From: a bacterium UBP2_UBA5202
GTDB lineage: Bacteria > Edwardsbacteria > AC1 > EtOH8
Assembly: GCA_002412795.1 (NCBI GenBank)
Contig: DHVS01000011.1
Coordinates: forward strand, 19,824 to 83,823
DNA length: 64,000 nucleotides
Direction: 5' to 3'
Shown one piece after another: positions 7,644 to 29,372 of this stretch. The notes beneath the pieces were generated by a model. It was not told the DNA's origin. It did not search any database and saw nothing but the letters and a program-made list of their open reading frames with translations. Positions within the stretch are counted from its first letter, which is position 1. Every line of letters starts with the position of its first letter. The position numbers and the translations under genes were made by a program.

Positions 7644-7857
7644 TTTAACTTATACAAGTGGCAGCTTTGGCAATGATAGTACCTAACGACATATGGTCTG
7701 ATTGGATTTTGTCACTCCTCTATAATACAATAACAGGGTCCGATAATGAGTTTATGTATCGCTAATTATTCATACCAATCGAATGCCAAAATTGTCTGTA
7801 TCAAAAAACTAAAACTACTGGACATATGCCGTGCCGGGCTGGGAAAGGAGTATTAAC

Positions 7858-8523
7858 ATGAGAACGCTGGTGATCCACCCCAATGACTCAACCACTGATT
7901 TTCTGACTGATATCTATTCCGGCAAAAACTGGGAGGTCATAAGAGGTCCAATTAAGAAAGAAGAGCTTGCTGCTAGGATAGCAGACCACGACAGAATAGT
8001 TATGCTGGGACATGGCCTGCCCTCCGGACTAATCGGACACGGAGGCCTGGTAATTGACGAGTCCATGGCTCATCTGCTGCGGGGCAGGAAGTGCGTGTGC
8101 ATCTGGTGCAATGCCGACCAATATGTGTTGCGTCATGGTTTGTCTGGGTTTTACACCGGGATGTTCGTTTCCGAACCGGCCGAGGCCAGGTTGTTCGGCC
8201 TGCCGATTGACGCTGATCCGATTAAGGAGTCCAACCGGCTCTTTGCGGTAGCTGTCAGGGATTCAATTTTTAAGGAGAACATGCTGGAATTGACCAGGCA
8301 GGCCTATAACAGCAAGACCAACCCGGTGATTGATTACAACCGGAACAACTTGTACTCCAGGGATGCTTTGATCGAAGACTGGCAGGGGCCTGGTGGAGGC
8401 GCTGGCCACGATTATGAGATTGACCCTGTTGACAACCATGTGAACGACAAATCAATTGAACAAGCCCATGCAATCGGCAGTATTTTGAAAGTAGGGAAGA
8501 ATAAGTATGAGAAAAATCAGTGA
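7858..8523 (+). CDS. hypothetical protein, possibly a caspase-like His/Cys fold; first gene of the Hsp70-helicase operon
   Basis: AAAGGAG ribosome-binding site before the ATG at 7858. IVMLGHG...CVCIWCNAD spacing resembles a caspase/CHAT His-Gly and Cys dyad (weak). 3' end overlaps the next gene by 17 nt. Confidence 0.45.
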   Translation: MRTLVIHPNDSTTDFLTDIYSGKNWEVIRGPIKKEELAARIADHDRIVMLGHGLPSGLIGHGGLVIDESMAHLLRGRKCVCIWCNADQYVLRHGLSGFYTGMFVSEPAEARLFGLPIDADPIKESNRLFAVAVRDSIFKENMLELTRQAYNSKTNPVIDYNRNNLYSRDALIEDWQGPGGGAGHDYEIDPVDNHVNDKSIEQAHAIGSILKVGKNKYEKNQ

Positions 8524-10933
8524 TGCGTTCCACGCCCTTGTCGCATCCGGCCCGAAGACTCTTAAAGTCCCGGACCAACCGGTGCGGGTCATCGGCATCG
8601 ACCTGGGCACAACCAATTCCACCATTGCCGAGATAATATGGGACCCGGACCAGCCCGGTGAGGTCAAGCCCCGATGCGTGGAGGTAAGCCAGGAAACCAT
8701 GGCCGGGGATTATACTCATATACTGATCCCGTCCGCAGTGGCCTTGCACCAGAGCAAGGCTATCATCGGCGAGGGGGCCAAGCGTCTGTTCCCCCGCTCG
8801 GCCGAGCTGGGCCTGGAGTCTTACAAGGACATTTTTCTGGAATGCAAGAACGACATGGGCAATGACCGCACCTACCACCGGGCGCCCCAGGGTTATCGTT
8901 CCGCGGCCGAGATCGGCGGCCATGTCCTGAAGTTCCTGGCCGGAGCGGCGTCCCAGCAAGGAGGCATCCCAATTTCTCATACGGTGGTCACGGTACCGGC
9001 TTCGTTCCAGATCTCCCAGCGCCAGGACACCGTCAAGGCGGCCGAGCTAGCCGGAATCACCATCGCCAACGGCGACCTGCTGGACGAGCCCATTGCCGCC
9101 TTGTTTGACTATCTGGTGGCTTTTCCGGAGAAGGTGGCCGAGCATCTGACCGGAAAAAAGAACCTGGTTGTGTTCGATTTCGGGGGCGGCACTTGCGATG
9201 TGGCCGTATTCCAACTGGAACAGGCCGACCTCGGGGGCCGGATAGGCATTTCCCCGCTGGCGGTATCTCGCTACCATCGCCTGGGCGGAGGGGACATAGA
9301 CCGGGCCATTGTTCACCAGGTGCTGATACCCCAGCTGATCGAGCAGAACCGCCTGAACAGCTTCGATATCGGGTTTGAGGACCGAAAAAACAAGCTGGAA
9401 CCGGCCCTCTTGGGGGTGGCCGAAGCGCTCAAGATGGGACTTTGCGATGAGATCAGGACACTTATTAGTTTTGGCAAATACAAATCTTCTGACAAGACAA
9501 CGGTAATCAAGATCCAGCCAGGACTCCACACCTGTTATCTTAACCATGAAAAATGGGAGCTGCGTTCACCGGCATTGTCAGCCAAGCAGTTTGAAGACCT
9601 GCTGGTCCCGTTCCTGGACTCTGACCTGCTCTATGCCAGGGAGACCGAATACTTCCTGACTTGCTCGATATTTGCCCCCATCCAGGACGCCTTGGACCGC
9701 TGTGGGCTGGAGACGAAGGACGTGGGCCTGTGCCTTTTGGTGGGCGGCAGCTGCCTTATCCCGCAGGTGTCGGCGGCGGTCAGAAAATACTTTGACAAGG
9801 CAACCATTTTTCAGCATGACAACCCCGATGCCATTCAGGTGGCCGTGGCCAAGGGGGCGGCCTGCCACGCCCTTTCGCTGGCCCTCTATGGGCATGGTCT
9901 GTTCCAGGTAAAAGCCCAGGAGCCCATAAATGTCAGCACAGCCTCGGGTCCGGTCGAGATCATACCCAAGGGGGCCGCTCTGCCTTACCCGGCCGAGGGA
10001 TGGAACACATTCAAGGCGCTGACGGTGCCGTCGACATCAATTAAAGATCCAGTGGCCATGAAGGTGGAGATTACCGCCGGGCCCAAGGACGATGTACGCA
10101 TCCTTTTCAGCCAGACCTGGTTCATTCCTGCCCCGGTCAACCAGGGTGACAGGCTTATATTGAGCTACCGGTTGGACGGCAACCAGGTGTTCGATTTTAA
10201 GCTGCGTTTGGAAAGCGACCCCGAGGGTGAAGGATACGACGGCCAGATCCAGAATCCCCTGACCAATGTGGTCAATCCCAACAAGACCAGGATCCTGATC
10301 CAGCAGGACGAAGAGGAACTGAGGACCGGGTCGGTGCCCAAAAGACTGATTCCCAGCAAGATAGTGGAGATCGCCCAGAACTATGCCAAGATCAAGCAGT
10401 ACGAGAAGGCCATTTCCTATCTGCAGAGGGCCTTGAGGATGGGCGACAGCCCCGATCCAAATATTCTGAACCTGATGGGTATTTATAGCGGGCATATAGG
10501 TGACACCGCCCATGAGGAGAAATATTACCGGGAATCCGCTGCCCAAGGAGGCGGCTCGGCATCCTTGTTTAATCTGGCCTTGAGCCAGAAAGAGAGAGGC
10601 AAGAACCAGGAGGCCCTGAAGACAGTCGAAGAGGCTGTCGAGGAGGGAGCGGACGGTCCGACCATGACGCTGCAGTCCATGCTGCAGGAAAAGACCGGGG
10701 ACAAACGGGGTTCGGAAAAATCGATCAAGGAAGCCTTTGAATTGTTCCGCCCATTTTCGGCCATGACAGACTGGGAGCTGGGTTGGTATATCACAGCCTG
10801 CAAAATGTCCGGACGCGATTCCGACCAGGAGAAGGCCAAAAAGGAAATGAGCCGCCGGGGCCAAAAGGGTGATATGACCGGAGGGGCCGATGGGATGCTA
10901 CCGGGCCTTTCCGGGGACTTGGTCCGGCGATGA
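8507..10933 (+). CDS. Hsp70 (DnaK)-like actin-fold ATPase with C-terminal beta-sandwich and TPR-like extension
   Basis: IGIDLGTTNS (Hsp70 signature 1) and VVFDFGGGTCDVAV (signature 2 / phosphate-2) are present. Roughly 430 aa follow the ATPase core, ending in TPR-like helices. Stop overlaps the next start (ATGA). Confidence 0.8.
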   Translation: MRKISDAFHALVASGPKTLKVPDQPVRVIGIDLGTTNSTIAEIIWDPDQPGEVKPRCVEVSQETMAGDYTHILIPSAVALHQSKAIIGEGAKRLFPRSAELGLESYKDIFLECKNDMGNDRTYHRAPQGYRSAAEIGGHVLKFLAGAASQQGGIPISHTVVTVPASFQISQRQDTVKAAELAGITIANGDLLDEPIAALFDYLVAFPEKVAEHLTGKKNLVVFDFGGGTCDVAVFQLEQADLGGRIGISPLAVSRYHRLGGGDIDRAIVHQVLIPQLIEQNRLNSFDIGFEDRKNKLEPALLGVAEALKMGLCDEIRTLISFGKYKSSDKTTVIKIQPGLHTCYLNHEKWELRSPALSAKQFEDLLVPFLDSDLLYARETEYFLTCSIFAPIQDALDRCGLETKDVGLCLLVGGSCLIPQVSAAVRKYFDKATIFQHDNPDAIQVAVAKGAACHALSLALYGHGLFQVKAQEPINVSTASGPVEIIPKGAALPYPAEGWNTFKALTVPSTSIKDPVAMKVEITAGPKDDVRILFSQTWFIPAPVNQGDRLILSYRLDGNQVFDFKLRLESDPEGEGYDGQIQNPLTNVVNPNKTRILIQQDEEELRTGSVPKRLIPSKIVEIAQNYAKIKQYEKAISYLQRALRMGDSPDPNILNLMGIYSGHIGDTAHEEKYYRESAAQGGGSASLFNLALSQKERGKNQEALKTVEEAVEEGADGPTMTLQSMLQEKTGDKRGSEKSIKEAFELFRPFSAMTDWELGWYITACKMSGRDSDQEKAKKEMSRRGQKGDMTGGADGMLPGLSGDLVRR

Positions 10934-12186
10934 GCTGGCTTGTTCCCGAAAATGAGCTTACCCCCGAGCAATTGCGGGCCATCAGGCTGGGACCGGAGGA
11001 AAACCGGGCAATAGTTGGGGGCCCTGGTTCCGGCAAGACCCAGATCCTCTTGTACCGGGCACGGTTTCTCAAGGATAAGCACAGGATATTTCCGGCAAAA
11101 TTCAGGGTGCTGGTCTATACCAATGTACTTAAGGATTACATTCGCTCCGCCCTACCGCTTTTGGGGCTGCCGGACGAATGCGTGCTTACCTTCGACCATT
11201 GGTGCCGGTTGTTTTATGAGGAACACATCGGCCGGACGCTTCCCTGGGACGCTACACACAAAACGCCAGATTTTGCCGCAATACGGCAGGCGGTGGCTGC
11301 CTTGATCGAAAACCGTAAGGTCAAACTTCCCCTTTATGACTTCGTGCTGGTGGACGAGGGGCAGGACTTGGATATAGGGGTCTTCAACCTGCTATCGAAG
11401 ATCGCCAAGCATGTGACGGTCTGCCTGGATTCCAAACAGAAGATCTATGACACAGATTCCAACGAACAGAGCATACTTTCCGTACTGGGAATACAAAGGC
11501 GCAACATCAGCCTGATAGACGCTTTCAGGGTCTGCCCCTACCTGGTGCGTCTGGCCTCGGTGCTGATTCCAGAACAGGGAGAGAGGGATGCTTTCGTAAA
11601 CCAAGCCAGGACCGAACAGGTGGAAAGGCAAATGCCGTTCCTGTACTTGGCAGATTCATATGCCGATGAGAAGGAAAAGCTCTTTCAGATGATCCGCGAG
11701 CGCCAGCTTAAGAACGATTCCATAGCCATTTTGTTCCCCATCAACAAACAGGTCTTCGGATATGCCCAGGGCCTGAAGGAGGCCGGGATCGAGGTCGAGG
11801 TGCCTCAAAAGGGGAAGACCAAGGGTAAAATCCCCACCCATGATTTCGGAAGCAGCCGCCCCAAGCTGATGTCCTACCATAGCGCCAAGGGCCTAACATT
11901 TGATTCTGTGTTTATGCCGAGGCTTACATCCAGGGCCTTCGAATTTACTAGGCAAAGCCAAGAACGGATATCCAAACTGCTGTTCGTGGCCATTACCAGA
12001 GCCACCAAATGGGTGTTCATCTCGACAGATAAAAAGGATATGCTTGACGTTATCCGCGACAAGATGCTTCCGATGGAAAGCACAGGGCAAATCTTCGTCG
12101 GTCGCATGGGGCAAAATGTAAGGGGATCACAACCATCAAAAATCCCCGAAATTGAAACAGAAAACGACCCGCTGGATTTTTTATAA
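10930..12186 (+). CDS. minimal UvrD/PcrA-like SF1 helicase (P-loop NTPase)
   Basis: LTPEQLRAI (Q motif), GGPGSGKT (Walker A), VLVDEGQDL (motif II), MSYHSAKGLTFDSVFM (motif V), LFVAITRATKWVFIS (motif VI). Confidence 0.7.
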   Translation: MSWLVPENELTPEQLRAIRLGPEENRAIVGGPGSGKTQILLYRARFLKDKHRIFPAKFRVLVYTNVLKDYIRSALPLLGLPDECVLTFDHWCRLFYEEHIGRTLPWDATHKTPDFAAIRQAVAALIENRKVKLPLYDFVLVDEGQDLDIGVFNLLSKIAKHVTVCLDSKQKIYDTDSNEQSILSVLGIQRRNISLIDAFRVCPYLVRLASVLIPEQGERDAFVNQARTEQVERQMPFLYLADSYADEKEKLFQMIRERQLKNDSIAILFPINKQVFGYAQGLKEAGIEVEVPQKGKTKGKIPTHDFGSSRPKLMSYHSAKGLTFDSVFMPRLTSRAFEFTRQSQERISKLLFVAITRATKWVFISTDKKDMLDVIRDKMLPMESTGQIFVGRMGQNVRGSQPSKIPEIETENDPLDFL

Positions 12187-12376
12187 AGGTAAGTTGTATG
12201 TTATAAAGATTATGACCAACTTATCCGTGATTGAAAATGCAATAAGACCGTAGAATCAAGATCGCAGGTATAACTAAATAATAATGGCTTTCCGGGCTTT
12301 GGAGTAACATCCAGGGCCCGTTTTTGTCACCCCTTGGTGGTACAATATTAGAGAACTTTAAATAAGGGGTAACGCC

Positions 12377-12649
12377 ATGGAAAAGAAGAAGATGGTGCCC
12401 AAGGTTGTCCAAAAAAGGGAAAGCTTGCCGGGCATTAGCCAGGATACCGCTGTAATCGTCAATAATATCGCTTCAGAATACGATTATATCGCTAAATTGC
12501 TGGGGAAACCGGGGTCAGGCTGGACCTTGGAAAGACAGGCATTGAGACAAGCGGATGGCAAATCCTACGATTTAATTGATGTCGTTTTGAAGGATGGAAC
12601 CCGCCGCCGGTATTGGTTTGACATCACGTCATTCTTTGGAAAAACCTAA
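12377..12649 (+). CDS. hypothetical small protein
   Basis: ORF with a TGnTACAAT extended -10-like element upstream. Confidence 0.4.
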   Translation: MEKKKMVPKVVQKRESLPGISQDTAVIVNNIASEYDYIAKLLGKPGSGWTLERQALRQADGKSYDLIDVVLKDGTRRRYWFDITSFFGKT

Positions 12650-12664: not shown

Positions 12665-13324
12665 ATGTTATCCCCGTTGAAAGAGTTTAGATGCGACCAT
12701 TGTACCGATACTATTAACGATCCAAGCCAGGGCTGGGTGGAGTGGCTGGATTTGGATGGTAAGTGCTCACAGTTTCGTATTGTGCACCGCAGAGAACATT
12801 CGCAGGCACTTAACGGATGTTGCGGGGCGGAGGGCAGAAAAGATTGGCCTTTTTATTTTATTGATGACGTTAGAGAACTTTATGGGGAGTATTGGCTGGC
12901 TACGGCGGGGAAACATCTTACCGAAGGGGCTGTGCCTGGTGGTGAATACCCAGCCGTAGGGCACGAGAAATTAGGCACCGAGAACATGAAATACTGGCGG
13001 GCATATCCCCTGGAGGATTACCTGGGTTTTAAGAGCATGGCCTTTTTGCGCCGAATATTGAAGTCTGGAGCCTATTGTCCAGGATCTCATACCAAGCCTG
13101 AAGGCCTTGATTTACAGGATTTGACACATTTTATATGCCGGTTGACCATACCCTACTACGAAGATATTCATTTACGGGTTTCACGGTTGGTATTTAGAGT
13201 TGGCTTATTACCTTTGTTGGTTAAAACGCTTGTTTGGGGCGATGAAGGCCGCGTAATTCGAATGCAACAAGTACCGGCAATTTTAAAAAGATTGTTCTGG
13301 AGGGAAGATGAAAAAGAAATCTAA
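12665..13324 (+). CDS. hypothetical protein (Cys/His-rich N-terminus)
   Basis: AAGGAGCC ribosome-binding site before the ATG. CDHC...H..H...CC motif. Confidence 0.45.
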   Translation: MLSPLKEFRCDHCTDTINDPSQGWVEWLDLDGKCSQFRIVHRREHSQALNGCCGAEGRKDWPFYFIDDVRELYGEYWLATAGKHLTEGAVPGGEYPAVGHEKLGTENMKYWRAYPLEDYLGFKSMAFLRRILKSGAYCPGSHTKPEGLDLQDLTHFICRLTIPYYEDIHLRVSRLVFRVGLLPLLVKTLVWGDEGRVIRMQQVPAILKRLFWREDEKEI

Positions 13325-13469
13325 AGCTAAACCAAAATCTGCCTTCGACCGGGATTATGTGGTCAAAGGTCAGAAGGCGGTCTACCGGGGTAAAAGCTCA
13401 GATATTAATATGGACAAATTGCTGAAGGAAATGAAGAAACGAGGCCTGAAGAAACTGGAATTTAACTAA
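13308..13469 (+). CDS. possible small lysine-rich ORF (53 aa), below the ORF-track threshold
   Basis: MKKKSKAKPKSAFDRDYVVKGQKAVYRGKSS...KKLEFN. GGAGGG 3 nt upstream. Overlaps the previous gene's end out of frame. Confidence 0.2.
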   Translation: MKKKSKAKPKSAFDRDYVVKGQKAVYRGKSSDINMDKLLKEMKKRGLKKLEFN

Positions 13470-13489
13470 CTTTGATAGAAGGGCTATTA

Positions 13490-14119
13490 ATGGGCAAGAT
13501 CAATTACCTGATCATAGACGAAACGGACCCGGCACACGAGTTTGAGTGCGAGGGTGATGTGATAGAAACATTTTTCTCCACCTCCAAAGCCTTTAACTTC
13601 AAGAAATGCAAGAAGCACATTCACTCTAAAACGGACTTGGAGGATTGGCTTAGGCGGGAGAAGACCCAGGCCTTCAATATCGTTCATTTAGCCGCCCATG
13701 GCCGGTACCGCCCAAAGAGTGGTACTGAATTGGATTATTCCGCCATCTACCGTCAGCGGGGAAGGAGCGAAAAGGAGATATTCCGGCCAGATACCATCGT
13801 TAGGGCTTGTCTGGAGGCCGACCTTTTGGTGTCTACCTGCTGTGAGACCTTCAACAACCATTTCCTGGGAGTGCTAAATGGGTATGGCGGTGTGGCTAAT
13901 TTTATCGCCCCGGCCGGGGATCCGTTCATTGGGGATACCATCGTTTTCTCGTTGATGCTTTACAATGGACTTATCCGGGAGGTGGGGTTCCTGCGGGGAA
14001 AGTTAAGCGATAAAGCCATCCGGGAAACGTTTAAGATCGCTCAGAAGGGCTATAAGGCCTACCAGGGCGAGGGTGATTTTAAGCTGTACAATTGGAAGAA
14101 GGATGCGGTCCATAATTGA
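13490..14119 (+). CDS. CHAT/caspase-like peptidase domain protein
   Basis: FNIVHLAAHG and LLVSTCCET match the His (hlxxHG) and Cys (LvvLSaC) catalytic-dyad motifs of the CHAT/caspase fold. The start could also be 13472. Confidence 0.55.
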   Translation: MGKINYLIIDETDPAHEFECEGDVIETFFSTSKAFNFKKCKKHIHSKTDLEDWLRREKTQAFNIVHLAAHGRYRPKSGTELDYSAIYRQRGRSEKEIFRPDTIVRACLEADLLVSTCCETFNNHFLGVLNGYGGVANFIAPAGDPFIGDTIVFSLMLYNGLIREVGFLRGKLSDKAIRETFKIAQKGYKAYQGEGDFKLYNWKKDAVHN

Positions 14120-24046: not shown

Positions 24047-24850
24047 ATGATCGGCGCCATAGCTGGAGACATCATAGGCTCGGTTTATGAATATACCCCT
24101 ACTAAAACCTTGGATTTCCCTTTATTCAGCCAGGATTCCGAGCTTACCGATGATACCGTCCTTACCGTGGCTGTGGCCGACTGCCTGCTGAACAAGAAGG
24201 ACTATGTCAAGACATTCAGGGATTACGCCCATCGATACCCTCACTGCGGTTTTGGCGGGGGTTTTGCACATTGGGCCATTTCACCAGATCCCAAACCTTA
24301 TAACAGTTGTGGCAATGGATCGGCCATGCGGGTCAGTCCTATTGGCTTCTTCCACGATTCAATTAAAGAGGTATTGAGGGAGGCCAAAGCCAGCGCCGAG
24401 GTCACCCATAACCACCCCGAGGGCATCAAAGGAGCACAGGCCACGGCCGCCGCTGTATTTATGGCCAGGACCGGAAGCAGCAAGCCGGAGATCAAGGATT
24501 ATGTCACCAAACAGTTCAGTTACAACCTGGATCGGAAGCTGGACGATATTAGAAAGACCTACGAATACGATATAACCAGCCAAGGGACGGTGCCGGAGTC
24601 CATAATAGCCTTCCTGGAGGCAAAAGACTACGAGGACGCCATCCGCAAGGCGATTTCGCTGGGAGGGGATGCTGATACCTTGGCCTGCATCACCGGAGGG
24701 ATTGCCCAGGCCTTTTACAAGCATATTCCTATCCAGGTATTAATGGAAGCCAGGAAGCGGCTGACCCCGGACCTGCTGAAGATAGTGGATCAGTTCGAGA
24801 AAAGATGCCCGGATGCTGCACCAATATTAAAGGGACCGGGCCTGAGTTGA
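24047..24850 (+). CDS. ADP-ribosylglycohydrolase (ARH/DraG family)
   Basis: GAIAGDIIGSVYE, DDT, GNGSAMRVSPIG, GGDADT, ACITGGIAQAFY - the full set of ARH-family motifs. Confidence 0.8.
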   Translation: MIGAIAGDIIGSVYEYTPTKTLDFPLFSQDSELTDDTVLTVAVADCLLNKKDYVKTFRDYAHRYPHCGFGGGFAHWAISPDPKPYNSCGNGSAMRVSPIGFFHDSIKEVLREAKASAEVTHNHPEGIKGAQATAAAVFMARTGSSKPEIKDYVTKQFSYNLDRKLDDIRKTYEYDITSQGTVPESIIAFLEAKDYEDAIRKAISLGGDADTLACITGGIAQAFYKHIPIQVLMEARKRLTPDLLKIVDQFEKRCPDAAPILKGPGLS

Positions 24851-28313: not shown

Positions 28314-29372
28314 ATGTCCATCAGACGCGAAAAGGGCCGCTACGTCATTGACTATTACTATCAAGGGGTGCGAAGACGGGAAGTGGCCGGGACCAACAAA
28401 AGGGAAGCTGAGAATATTCTGGCCATCCGCAAGGCCGAGATCCTGCAAGGTCGGTATCAGATCAAGAAGCCGTCCACAATGACCTTTGCAGAATTCTCAG
28501 AGATTTACATGGTGTATGCAAAAGCCAACAAGAGATCGTGGTTAAGGGATTATACCTCGTTGAAGCATCTGTTACCTGCCTTCGGAGCCAAGAAACTGAG
28601 TGATATAACCACCCATTCAATTGAAGACTACAAGATCAAAAGGTTGGCTAATGTAAAACCGGGGACGGTTAACCGCGAAATAGTTTTGATCAAGCGAGAA
28701 TTCAATTTAGCCATTGCTTGGGGCAATGCATCGGTCAATCCTGTGAAGGGGGTAAAACTATTCCGGGAGGATAATATTCAGGAGCGAATACTTACCAGGG
28801 ACGAAATTACCAAGTTGTTGGCGGCCTGTTCTGATTATTCCCGGCCCATAGTATTGACCGCACTTCACACCGGTATGAGAAAGGGTGAGATATTGGGCCT
28901 GAAGTGGGGCCAGGTTGACTTGGAAAAAAGGGTCATAACCATTCTGTTCAGCAAGAGCGGCCGGGTCCGTAAGATTCCGATCAACTCTGTCTTATTAGAG
29001 GTGCTGAAGGGGCTAAAAGAGAAGGCCACCCAGGAGTATGTCTTCACTTGCGTAAGGACCAAAGCCCCGGCTGGTAAAATTCAAACGGCGTGGTTGACTG
29101 CAATTAGGAAATCTGGTATAATACGTTGTCGTTTTCATGATCTGCGGCATACCTTCGCCAGCCATCTGATAGCTAATGGGGTGGACATAGTAACGGTCAA
29201 GGAACTACTCGGGCATGCGGACATCAAGATGACAATGCGCTATGCCCATGCCGCCCCAGAGACCAAGTTGCAGGCAGTGGCTACCCTGGAAAAGAGTGTT
29301 GGCGAAGTCCATAGTCACTATTTAGTCACCAGGCCTAAAATGGCCAAACCGGTAGTTGTCGTAAAGCGTTGA
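28314..29372 (+). CDS. tyrosine site-specific recombinase (phage integrase family)
   Basis: C-terminal HDLRHTFAS...LLGHADIKMTMRYAH (R-H-R-Y catalytic signature). Lies adjacent to a tRNA. Confidence 0.85.
   Translation: MSIRREKGRYVIDYYYQGVRRREVAGTNKREAENILAIRKAEILQGRYQIKKPSTMTFAEFSEIYMVYAKANKRSWLRDYTSLKHLLPAFGAKKLSDITTHSIEDYKIKRLANVKPGTVNREIVLIKREFNLAIAWGNASVNPVKGVKLFREDNIQERILTRDEITKLLAACSDYSRPIVLTALHTGMRKGEILGLKWGQVDLEKRVITILFSKSGRVRKIPINSVLLEVLKGLKEKATQEYVFTCVRTKAPAGKIQTAWLTAIRKSGIIRCRFHDLRHTFASHLIANGVDIVTVKELLGHADIKMTMRYAHAAPETKLQAVATLEKSVGEVHSHYLVTRPKMAKPVVVVKR

Follow-up and report, generated by a model that had tools for sequence, protein, structure and literature searches.

An Hsp70-like ATPase gene bearing a TPR domain (gene 2) and the minimal UvrD-like helicase gene that directly follows it (gene 3) are a real, recurrent and co-evolving pair, and only these two genes form a conserved unit. 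We infer an anti-phage or anti-mobile-element function and give about an even chance to the pair being an undescribed two-gene defense module. The genes lie in the window, the whole 64,000-nucleotide stretch of bacterial DNA that was analyzed, where the initial annotation had described a tightly coupled three-gene operon that begins with a small caspase-like gene (gene 1). The three open reading frames, both overlaps (17 nt between genes 1 and 2, ATGA between genes 2 and 3) and the motifs then cited are all real. Two antisense reading frames (8270..8980 and 10037..10864, minus strand) were rejected as unsupported, the homology being entirely on the plus strand.

Genes 2 and 3 recur as a pair

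Gene 2 (8507..10933, plus strand) encodes 808 residues and gene 3 (10930..12186, plus strand) encodes 418. We compared 71 non-redundant related loci, 66 of which had enough downstream sequence to score the helicase. At 56 of the 66 a helicase, in most cases of 400-470 residues, was encoded directly downstream of the Hsp70-like gene of about 800 codons, so the recurrent adjacency to a UvrD-like helicase of the 400-450-residue type, which had been proposed as a check, was observed. The gap between the genes was -2 to +87 nt, mostly below 40 nt, with three outliers of up to 311 nt, and the helicase also followed the Hsp70-TPR gene in all seven neighborhoods looked up. Pairwise identities among the Hsp70-like proteins tracked those among the helicases (matrix correlation, Mantel r 0.75), a value reached by none of 2000 permutations. 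The opposite outcome, an Hsp70-like gene in housekeeping surroundings and lacking the helicase, had been named as refuting the proposal. The 56 loci speak against it, but it has something on its side: some loci have ordinary neighbors (L085, for example, has flagellar export genes and a PAS kinase), and the remaining ten of the 66 encode divergent Hsp70-TPR proteins and no helicase, so that the ATPase is apparently able to work alone or with another partner.

Homologs of gene 2 number more than 120, are about 800 residues long with 48-57% identity and come from at least eight phyla (sources include Alphaproteobacteria, Omnitrophota, Desulfobacteraceae, Bacteriovoracaceae, Acidobacteriota, Nitrospirota, Eubacteriales and Verrucomicrobiia); a family-specific C-terminal profile found 223 clusters (50% identity) at E <= 1e-30. 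The distribution is patchy over phyla at about 50% identity and the flanking genes are not conserved. We give about even odds to the reading that the true unit is a two-gene cassette, 8444-12330, which moves horizontally. As the family was not found in PLSDB plasmids or GenBank phages and was present on only one IMG/VR contig, the argument for mobility is drawn entirely from the patchy distribution and the islands. The first DNA of the cassette is the junction and leader (8444..8506, plus strand), which includes the ribosome binding site of gene 2 (the surroundings of the gene 2 start read GTAGGGAAGAATAAGTATG). Downstream of gene 3, a terminator-like hairpin of 11 pairs followed by a T-run (12293..12330, plus strand) likely closes the transcription unit.

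Gene 1 is a truncated bystander

Gene 1 (7858..8523, plus strand) encodes 221 residues counted from the ATG, with GGAAAGGAG upstream. The tentative label of caspase-like was correct: a His follows one strand and a Cys the next, as in the clan CD caspase-hemoglobinase fold, and by fold the protein is a predicted mini clan CD-like cysteine peptidase. A three-gene system, in which this protease would be the effector or activator acting with the Hsp70-like ATPase and the helicase, could appeal to the co-orientation and 17-nt overlap of genes 1 and 2, the intact caspase-fold domain with its conserved His/Cys dyad, the lack of a predicted terminator between the two genes and a GC3 of 0.60, which differs from the flanks and is near the values for gene 2 (0.72) and gene 3 (0.64). 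We nevertheless consider such a system very improbable. No gene 1 homolog was found at any of the 71 non-redundant related loci, where the upstream genes are unrelated (HTH proteins, a 186-residue protein lacking similarity, methyltransferases, or nothing), and the gene 1 family is overwhelmingly found on viral contigs. Moreover, gene 1 is 3'-truncated. In blastn alignments to its closest relative (L257:1771-2404 versus window:7804-8443; 79% identity) similarity ends at 8443, and the relative's reading frame runs about 220 residues past this break point. Beyond 8443 gene 1 reads through the gene 2 leader to a stop at 8523, and therefore the 17-nt overlap is no sign of coupling. The coupling claimed for the three genes thus holds for genes 2 and 3 and fails for gene 1, which lies outside the conserved module as a truncated phage-type mini-caspase gene that abuts the cassette by chance. 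Its contribution may be upstream transcription only.

Gene 2 encodes an Hsp70-like ATPase whose lid is replaced by a TPR domain

The nucleotide-binding domain (NBD) signatures first noticed in gene 2 (within VIGIDLGTTNS and VFDFGGGTCDV) were borne out by a Pfam HSP70 match at 1e-29, and Pfam TPR models matched the repeats noted toward the C-terminus. The actin-fold NBD (8582..9889, plus strand; residues 26-461) has the phosphate-1, phosphate-2 and adenosine motifs, and the phosphate-binding motifs are invariant across homologs. By sequence, the ATPase domain is intact. The initial annotation held that the substrate-binding region is missing. This is probably wrong, since an AF2 model (pLDDT 88, pTM 0.83) contradicts it: at the position of the DnaK substrate-binding domain (SBD) it places a beta-sandwich (9902..10252, plus strand; residues 466-582) that is probably SBD-beta-like, although an hhalign comparison with the DnaK SBD gave no significant match. 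At the level of fold the protein belongs to the Hsp70 superfamily. The lid is replaced in the model by a Hop/CHIP-like TPR array of ten helices (10340..10873, plus strand; residues 612-789).

Gene 2 scored only 107-115 bits with the NCBIfam HscA and DnaK models, about one sixth of the cut-offs of 620-822 (HscA, 115 bits with a cut-off of 620; DnaK, 109 bits with a cut-off of 648), which argues that it is no housekeeping chaperone. The other marks of a canonical DnaK or HscA are also missing: there is no helical lid, and no J-domain or GrpE gene was found in the operon.

Gene 3 encodes a core-only helicase

Gene 3 matched the Pfam UvrD-helicase (N-terminal) and UvrD_C models. The full set of SF1 motifs reported for this 418-residue protein is present, and across 48 homologs motifs Q, I, II, III, IV, V and VI vary little or not at all. 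Alignment to PcrA covers PcrA residues 12-99, 217-364 and 560-618 only; 2B is missing altogether, and about 40 residues remain of 1B. Gene 3 is therefore a minimal, core-only relative of UvrD, PcrA and Rep, a bare motor of two RecA domains, rather than a canonical SF1A member. Both proteins have invariant ATPase motifs and are predicted to be active enzymes. Following a variable low-complexity linker, predicted to be flexible, the helicase ends in a conserved acidic-hydrophobic tail (12163..12183, plus strand; ENDPLDFL-COOH) with the family consensus D-D-[LI]-[LT]-D-[LF]-L, or more loosely D-D-L-x-D-[FL]-L-COOH. In the 48 homologs position -3 is D in 38, position -2 is L, F or I in 43 and position -1 is L or F in 46.

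The neighborhoods of the pair are variable and rich in defense genes

In the window the cassette lies among AbiJ, GmrSD and SIR2, the latter two upstream, and a PLD-SNF2 gene and an Eco57I/MmeI-type methyltransferase gene downstream, in an island that ends in a tyrosine integrase. The GmrSD/SIR2 and restriction-modification-like flanks described at the outset were thereby recovered; a CHAT gene was not, as Pfam found no such domain in the downstream reading frames tested (12665, 13472, 14457 and 15465). At the related loci the commonest neighbor families, by plain frequency, were Eco57I, Type_ISP_C, SNF2, ResIII, N6_Mtase, N6_N4_Mtase, MTES_1575, PLDc_2, AbiEii, GmrSD, BrxL, SLFN and phage integrase. 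PADLOC identified DrmD/SNF2, type IIG restriction-modification, type III methyltransferases and PDC-S37/MkoA-like helicases at these loci. The pair may thus serve in defense.

The housekeeping duties of UvrD, Rep and PcrA relatives include the removal of proteins from DNA, and specialized Hsp70s with dedicated clients (HscA, HscC) exist. By these precedents the pair could instead be a specialized chaperone-helicase for DNA transactions of the host or of a carrier mobile element, for example in restarting replication, clearing protein roadblocks, maintaining the element or countering restriction. Some loci lack defense neighbors (L085), and the integrative element that carries the window copy also encodes ArdC, RadC and an integrase. 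We nonetheless hold a role outside immunity, including these specific tasks, to be unlikely, given the patchy distribution amid unconserved flanks, the predominance of restriction-modification and defense genes among neighbors, the lack of a J-domain or GrpE partner and the absence of the family from sequenced plasmids and phages.

The same neighborhoods bear on whether the pair is an accessory module that aids or regulates PLD-SNF2 plus type IIG, ISP or III enzymes, as do genes embedded in Hma- or DISARM-type loci. Among neighbors, methyltransferases of Eco57I type, type ISP and type III are commonest, and the window GmrSD matches HEC-05, an Hma-embedded candidate. PLD-SNF2 relatives are directly adjacent at two loci (L086 and L088), and in the window the distance is 5 kb, but such genes flank only 10 of the 71 loci (14%), the others having type ISP, type III or no such enzymes. 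No single restriction-modification type accompanies the pair, and its tight internal spacing is kept whatever adjoins it. A dependent role of this kind is quite unlikely.

The pair differs from known systems

Profile searches, as proposed, gave HSP70 and TPR matches for gene 2 and UvrD and GajB matches for gene 3, whereas PADLOC returned nothing for genes 1 and 2 at E <= 0.1. A literature search for an Hsp70-like/UvrD-like pair likewise found no description and no named system, in keeping with the original claim of novelty.

The likeness to Gabija drawn at first extends to the helicase superfamily and to the arrangement: a two-gene module in defense islands with a UvrD-type SF1A helicase second and an ATPase partner upstream. 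It ends at the partner, as GajA is an OLD-family ABC-ATPase with a TOPRIM nuclease, whereas the module here has an actin-fold Hsp70-like ATPase and no nuclease. Gene 3 is itself GajB-like only in part. Its best PADLOC match is C3a187 (NERD+UvrD; 1e-26); many GajB models match as well, but piecemeal, in two or three stretches (1e-19 to 1e-5), and the best of them have about 560-640 positions as against 418 residues lacking 2B. To our knowledge, a conserved C-terminal tail motif is no feature of GajB.

We found only one comparable architecture in the literature, CoCoNuT type III, a predicted defense system whose types III-B/C comprise CnuD (Hsp70-like NBD/SBD plus HEAT), the McrBC-like GTPase CnuBC and the SF1 helicase CnuH (PMC11090510). 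The shared plan is an SF1 helicase encoded near an Hsp70-like NBD/SBD that is joined to an alpha-solenoid; gene 2 (NBD, SBD-like domain and solenoid) is analogous in architecture. However, the solenoid is TPR here and HEAT in CnuD, and the Walker-A-like motifs of CnuD are degenerate (PMC11090510) whereas the phosphate-binding motifs of gene 2 are invariant. CnuH is UPF1-like with OB, SmpB-like and RNase-like domains (PMC11090510); gene 3 is a bare UvrD-like core that matches UvrD-helicase/UvrD_C rather than AAA_11/AAA_12 and has no extra domains. No McrB-like NxD GTPase (CnuB) or McrC-like DUF2357 (CnuC) was found in the operon or in window reading frames 1733 to 24012, nor were these domains among the top neighbor families of related loci, and the pair shows no sign of RNA targeting.

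HSP70 proteins have also been placed in predicted GTPase-centered conflict systems by Kaur et al. 2020, some lacking the peptide-binding domain and some linked to TPR-bearing proteins; UvrD is not mentioned there (PMC7159879), and the present pair has no GTPase, tubulin, GrpE or DnaJ partner. The pair resembles these systems and HscA, HscC and YegD in giving an Hsp70 ATPase a narrow task, but differs from HscA and DnaK in falling far below the NCBIfam cut-offs.

A possible mechanism

If the pair is a defense module, the Hsp70-like protein may act as its sensor and regulator, driven by ATP, and would hold or license the helicase. The most plausible means is that the helicase C-terminal peptide, or the G-x-L-P tail of the Hsp70-like protein itself, docks in the TPR groove or in the cleft of the SBD. 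Once these sites were taken by a foreign protein or peptide, the Hsp70-like protein would change state, and the released or activated helicase would translocate on invader or replicating DNA. There it could remove bound proteins, unwind intermediates or, like GajB, burn (d)NTPs. Signaling may also run in the opposite direction: the helicase would sense invader DNA (ends, ssDNA or replication intermediates), and the Hsp70-like ATPase would be the effector and would either sequester or unfold a host or phage protein that is essential, or form an actin-like polymer that arrests the cell. We regard this reversal as rather improbable.

With the Hsp70-like protein as sensor, the stronger proposal is that the pair is a new class of immune system built on a true Hsp70 machine, in which the SBD and clamp TPR sense and the helicase is controlled via its C-terminal peptide. 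This is possible, with the doubts prevailing. If true, the Hsp70-TPR-C-terminal-peptide wiring of eukaryotic co-chaperones would have been put to bacterial immunity. Hop/Sti1, CHIP and Sgt2 are TPR co-chaperones of Hsp70/Hsp90 that bind the C-terminal EEVD peptide; here, by analogy, the Hsp70-like protein carries the TPR in its own chain and the candidate peptide is on the helicase. The conserved TPR residues (N655, N689, K634, W756 and W760), those at the clamp positions included, are equally conserved in the helicase-less copies, which does not favor a TPR groove reserved for the tail of the helicase. The C-terminal G/S-x-L-P motif of gene 2 (10892..10903, plus strand; residues 796-799) is conserved as well: L798 and P799 are each present in 69 of 70 homologs, and the tail is modeled with beta-bridges at 797 and 800-801 (pLDDT 60-72).

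The conserved unit is a gene pair

The region contains three plus-strand ORFs, as proposed in the initial annotation: gene 1, encoding a small caspase-like protein (7858..8523, 221 aa from an ATG with GGAAAGGAG just before the start); gene 2, encoding an Hsp70-like ATPase with TPR repeats (Hsp70-TPR; 8507..10933, 808 aa); and gene 3, encoding a minimal UvrD-like helicase (10930..12186, 418 aa). The overlap is 17 nt between genes 1 and 2 and an ATGA between genes 2 and 3. At 12293-12330 the sequence would fold into a strong hairpin that, with its T-run, resembles a terminator. The GC3 values of the three genes (0.60, 0.72 and 0.64, respectively) stand out against those of the flanking island genes (0.21-0.41), and long antisense ORFs across the GC-rich 7858-12186 region were unsupported. 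A scan for sigma-70 promoters gave none ahead of gene 1, and its site count fell below that of shuffled sequences. The host probably belongs to the Bacteroidota/FCB group, as a T9SS sorting domain next to the island suggests, and promoters of that group are of a type other than those the scan detects.

More than 120 full-length homologs of gene 2 (~800 aa, 48-57% identity) were found in Alphaproteobacteria, Omnitrophota, Desulfobacteraceae, Bacteriovoracaceae, Acidobacteriota, Nitrospirota, Eubacteriales and Verrucomicrobiia. A profile search of genome contigs with the full-length alignment was uninformative, as it picked generic Hsp70 motifs (80 DnaK-type loci of about 28% identity). A profile built on the last 340 residues, the part specific to the family, matched 223 clusters (50% identity) at E <= 1e-30, and scanning metagenomes with the alignment of the C-terminal part brought in 80 further loci; after de-replication the set comprised 71 loci. 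Searches of plasmids and cultured phages gave no match to the Hsp70-TPR family.

The pairing of the Hsp70-like gene with a helicase of about 400 aa proved recurrent. The next gene encoded a UvrD-like helicase (403-437 aa), overlapping gene 2 or a few nt away, in all seven independent neighbourhoods, and a gene 3 homolog was present at 56 of the 66 loci that had at least 600 nt of downstream sequence. The spacing between the two matches was -2 to +87 nt in 53 of those 56. Moreover, the matrices of pairwise identity for the gene 2 and gene 3 products were strongly correlated (Mantel r 0.75), with none of 2000 permutations as high. The ten exceptions (L131, L132, L143, L150, L151, L155, L166, L168, L170 and L175) form a divergent Hsp70-TPR branch of 35-42% identity without a helicase nearby. 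Five of these loci have in common small ORFs (100 and 145 aa) that lack Pfam domains; the others adjoin a type III R-M, Fic/RhuM, or Thg1 plus a kinase, and an ADP-ribosylglycohydrolase gene also occurs beside this branch.

Gene 1 behaved differently. A homolog was absent from all 71 loci, and what precedes the pair differs among loci, being an HTH protein, a large methyltransferase or helicase, a 186-aa protein of no relation, or no gene at all. The 186-aa protein (at L084) was considered as a gene 1 analogue and rejected for lack of similarity. The closest relative of gene 1, at locus L257, is 79% identical in DNA sequence over window positions 7804 to 8443, with no similarity beyond; its ORF runs about 220 residues past the break, and the window ORF enters the gene 2 leader and stops at 8523. 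As the similarity ends at 8443, the left edge of the cassette lies at about 8444 and the 17-nt overlap, initially read as coupling of gene 1 to gene 2, is a by-product of the junction. We therefore rejected gene 1, absent elsewhere and truncated here, as a system component; it appears to be a bystander. Hence, of the three-gene operon originally proposed the gene 2-gene 3 part held and the gene 1 part did not, and comparison of loci argues that the conserved unit is the pair rather than the trio. That all three genes make up the system, as their overlaps had suggested, is now very improbable. We infer that the two-gene cassette is mobile.

The Hsp70-like ATPase

The Hsp70 assignment of gene 2 was borne out by the motifs VIGIDLGTTNS and VFDFGGGTCDV and by a match to Pfam HSP70 (1e-29), accompanied by matches to TPR models. 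The structure model (pLDDT 88, pTM 0.83) places a nucleotide-binding domain (NBD) at residues 26-461, a beta-rich domain at residues 466-582 with a connecting helix after it, and ten TPR-type helices at residues 612-789 followed by a short tail. Among 69 gene 2 sequences the ATPase signature residues were all invariant, as were N689, W760 and P799, and N655, W756 and L798 were nearly so (at least 90%).

Alignment to PDB sequences by phmmer was restricted to the NBD and did not cover the substrate-binding domain (SBD), and hhalign against the DnaK SBD gave the expected register at a non-significant probability of 0.3%. In NCBIfam the gene 2 product scores roughly a sixth of what the DnaK and HscA models require, and it is not a housekeeping chaperone. 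According to the model, it would carry two peptide-recognition modules, an SBD-like domain and a clamp-type TPR.

About ten residues from the C-terminus is a G/S-x-L-P motif (residues 796-799, window 10892-10903), of which L798 and P799 are each kept in 69 of 70 homologs. The model puts this G-x-L-P tail in a beta-bridge. The chaperone HscA recognises LPPVK, and by analogy the tail may be a pseudo-substrate of the protein's own SBD cleft.

The helicase and its C-terminal tail

Gene 3 matches the Pfam UvrD N- and C-terminal domains, and motifs Q, I, II, III, IV, V and VI show complete or almost complete conservation across 48 homologs, which substantiates its description as a small UvrD-like SF1 helicase. 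Alignment with PcrA is limited to residues 12-99, 217-364 and 560-618; compared with PcrA, domain 2B is absent and 1B is cut to about 40 residues. Judging from these conserved motifs, genes 2 and 3 seem to encode two catalytically intact NTPases.

The initial annotation did not describe the conserved C-terminal tail of gene 3. A variable low-complexity linker is followed by the peptide D-D-[LI]-[LT]-D-[LF]-L-COOH (ENDPLDFL in the window), with D at position -3 in 38 and L or F as final residue in 46 of the 48 homologs. Bacterial SSB has the C-terminal tip DDDIPF. Two helicase homologs, at L160 and L167, have SSB-tail-like C-termini (DEEDYPF and DDFDDMPF), and others end in LSDLF, similar to beta-clamp-binding motifs. 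Given these endings, the gene 3 tail might dock on host replication proteins instead of the Hsp70-like partner. Docking of the tail in the TPR domain can be proposed hypothetically; however, copies without a helicase conserve the residues of the TPR groove to the same degree, and tail type and TPR residues show no co-variation beyond phylogeny, both of which count against it.

A mosaic defence island

Upstream of the cassette the window has an AbiJ/HEPN gene, a GmrSD gene (a PADLOC HEC-05 match) and a SIR2 gene. The first genes downstream are small ORFs without Pfam or PADLOC domains, a TPR protein gene and a metallophosphatase gene. Farther on are a PLD-SNF2 helicase, an Eco57I/MmeI-type methyltransferase, an ADP-ribosylglycohydrolase (24047-24850, 57% identical to the copy at helicase-less locus L131), a radical-SAM protein and a tyrosine integrase (28314-29372), followed by ordinary genes. 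On the left the island is flanked by RadC (580-1023) and by ArdC, just outside the window edge. GC content is strongly mosaic (0.32 to 0.57) across positions 1-29400, the entire left half, which looks like one integrative element. Defence genes, integrase and ArdC/RadC together argue that the locus is a mosaic defence island carried by an integrative element.

The CHAT gene expected downstream was not found: Pfam showed no CHAT domain in the two ORFs that separate the cassette from the TPR gene (219 and 215 aa, 12665-14119) or in the next two genes, and the two ORFs had no match in Pfam, PADLOC or PHROG. Immediately beyond the terminator a 90-aa ORF (12377-12649) shares 40% identity with the ORF of 100 aa that comes directly after helicase-less Hsp70-TPR genes (L131, L143 and L151); it may be an accessory gene or merely shared island content.

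A census of neighbouring ORFs (200 aa or longer and no more than 5 kb from the pair; 84 on the upstream and 95 on the downstream side; raw counts) gave Eco57I, Helicase_C, Type_ISP_C, SNF2, ResIII, N6_Mtase and N6_N4_Mtase as the commonest Pfam families. The same list of commonest families included AAA_11/12 with MTES_1575, PLDc_2, phage integrase, AbiEii, GmrSD, WYL, SLFN, SocA_Panacea and RhuM, and housekeeping families occurred only as singletons or pairs. A non-defence DNA-maintenance role for the pair we consider unlikely. PADLOC models matched among the neighbours were DrmD/SNF2-like, type IIG R-M, type III methyltransferases and PDC-S37/MkoA-like helicases. A function as an accessory to R-M systems would suit this company, but the pair has no constant partner, and the PLD-SNF2 and methyltransferase genes were rejected as obligatory partners (PLD-SNF2 relatives at 10 of 71 loci); such a function seems distinctly improbable.

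At several loci (L084:11717-16906, L111:9323-14530, L115, L148:9329-14440) the gene directly downstream of the pair encodes a 1730-aa protein that joins an SF1 (AAA_11/AAA_12) helicase to an MTES_1575/DUF559 nuclease domain; these fusions match the PADLOC PDC-S37 and MkoA-like models.

Relation to known systems and possible mode of action

The initial claim that no named defence system combines an Hsp70-like ATPase with a UvrD-like helicase held up in the sources covered: no PADLOC v2 model matches gene 2, neither PADLOC v2 nor the papers searched yielded a named system of this kind, and a literature search on Hsp70 in anti-phage defence gave no account of the pair. There is a small chance that some other paper or database already describes it.

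In Gabija a UvrD-like motor is partnered with an OLD nuclease and the system acts by nicking; its defining GajA was sought and is lacking in the pair. The nearest published ideas are CoCoNuT type III, in which CnuD has an Hsp70-like NBD/SBD with HEAT repeats and is accompanied by McrBC-like proteins and a UPF1-like helicase (PMC11090510), and the GTPase-centred conflict systems with HSP70 of Kaur et al. 2020 (PMC7159879). The McrBC-like genes and UPF1-like helicase of CoCoNuT were likewise sought and are missing from the pair. The pair is real, widespread and uncharacterised, and is probably a defence or conflict module of new composition. Its wider kind, the defence-island ATPase-plus-SF1-helicase modules, is already known, and the chance that the pair is a mechanistically new class, while below even, is substantial.

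We propose that the Hsp70-like protein would act as an ATP-driven sensor and regulator, holding or licensing the helicase through peptide docking. A foreign protein at its binding sites would switch its state, and the helicase would be the DNA-directed effector: a translocase, protein stripper or NTP burner. As the module has no nuclease, the outcome must differ from the nicking by Gabija. The sensor and effector roles could be reversed, although we think this improbable. Given the intact ATPase, peptide-binding domain, clamp-type TPR and motor-only helicase with its tail, the signalling logic is directly testable, and which protein senses and which executes, and how a nuclease-free module halts a phage, are questions within reach. 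Bacterial immunity is driven by STAND, AAA+, ABC/OLD and SMC NTPases, and should the pair protect against phages the Hsp70 chaperone fold would join them. The pair would also illustrate the re-use of minimal UvrD-like motors, with an OLD nuclease in Gabija and with Hsp70 here.

A mini-caspase family of viral contigs

Gene 1 had no match in Pfam, NCBIfam, PADLOC or PHROGs. Its AlphaFold model (pLDDT about 97 for residues 1-170) has the conserved H52 and C84 each after one of two consecutive strands, and the tentative caspase-like label was thus correct. The family consists of minimal caspase-fold proteins of about 170 aa with a conserved HG...C dyad (window 7858-8367; L091-L095, L177-L256). IMG/VR viral contigs hold 304 relatives, many on contigs 90-500 kb long. 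The contexts inspected, on contigs of 85-233 kb, place the family in long series of tiny, early-gene-like ORFs that share one strand and are accompanied by a DNA methylase or a 5'-3' exonuclease. GenBank phages gave a single weak match, and a BFVD fold search with gene 1 gave no convincing viral structure match. From this distribution the family appears to be large, uncharacterised and mainly on viral contigs (large phages), and the mini-caspase could be a phage protease directed at host proteins; the family may merit separate study.

The L257 relative (P0122) is encoded by a longer, apparently frameshifted gene (L257:1826-3997) and consists of the mini-caspase plus a domain of ~220 aa in which D-T-G occurs twice and to which Pfam has nothing similar. 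A guess from the two D-T-G motifs that the domain is a retropepsin was rejected, as Pfam gave no support. The P0122 gene is followed by that of a 306-aa TPR protein, a protease-plus-TPR arrangement that resembles TPR-CHAT pairs.
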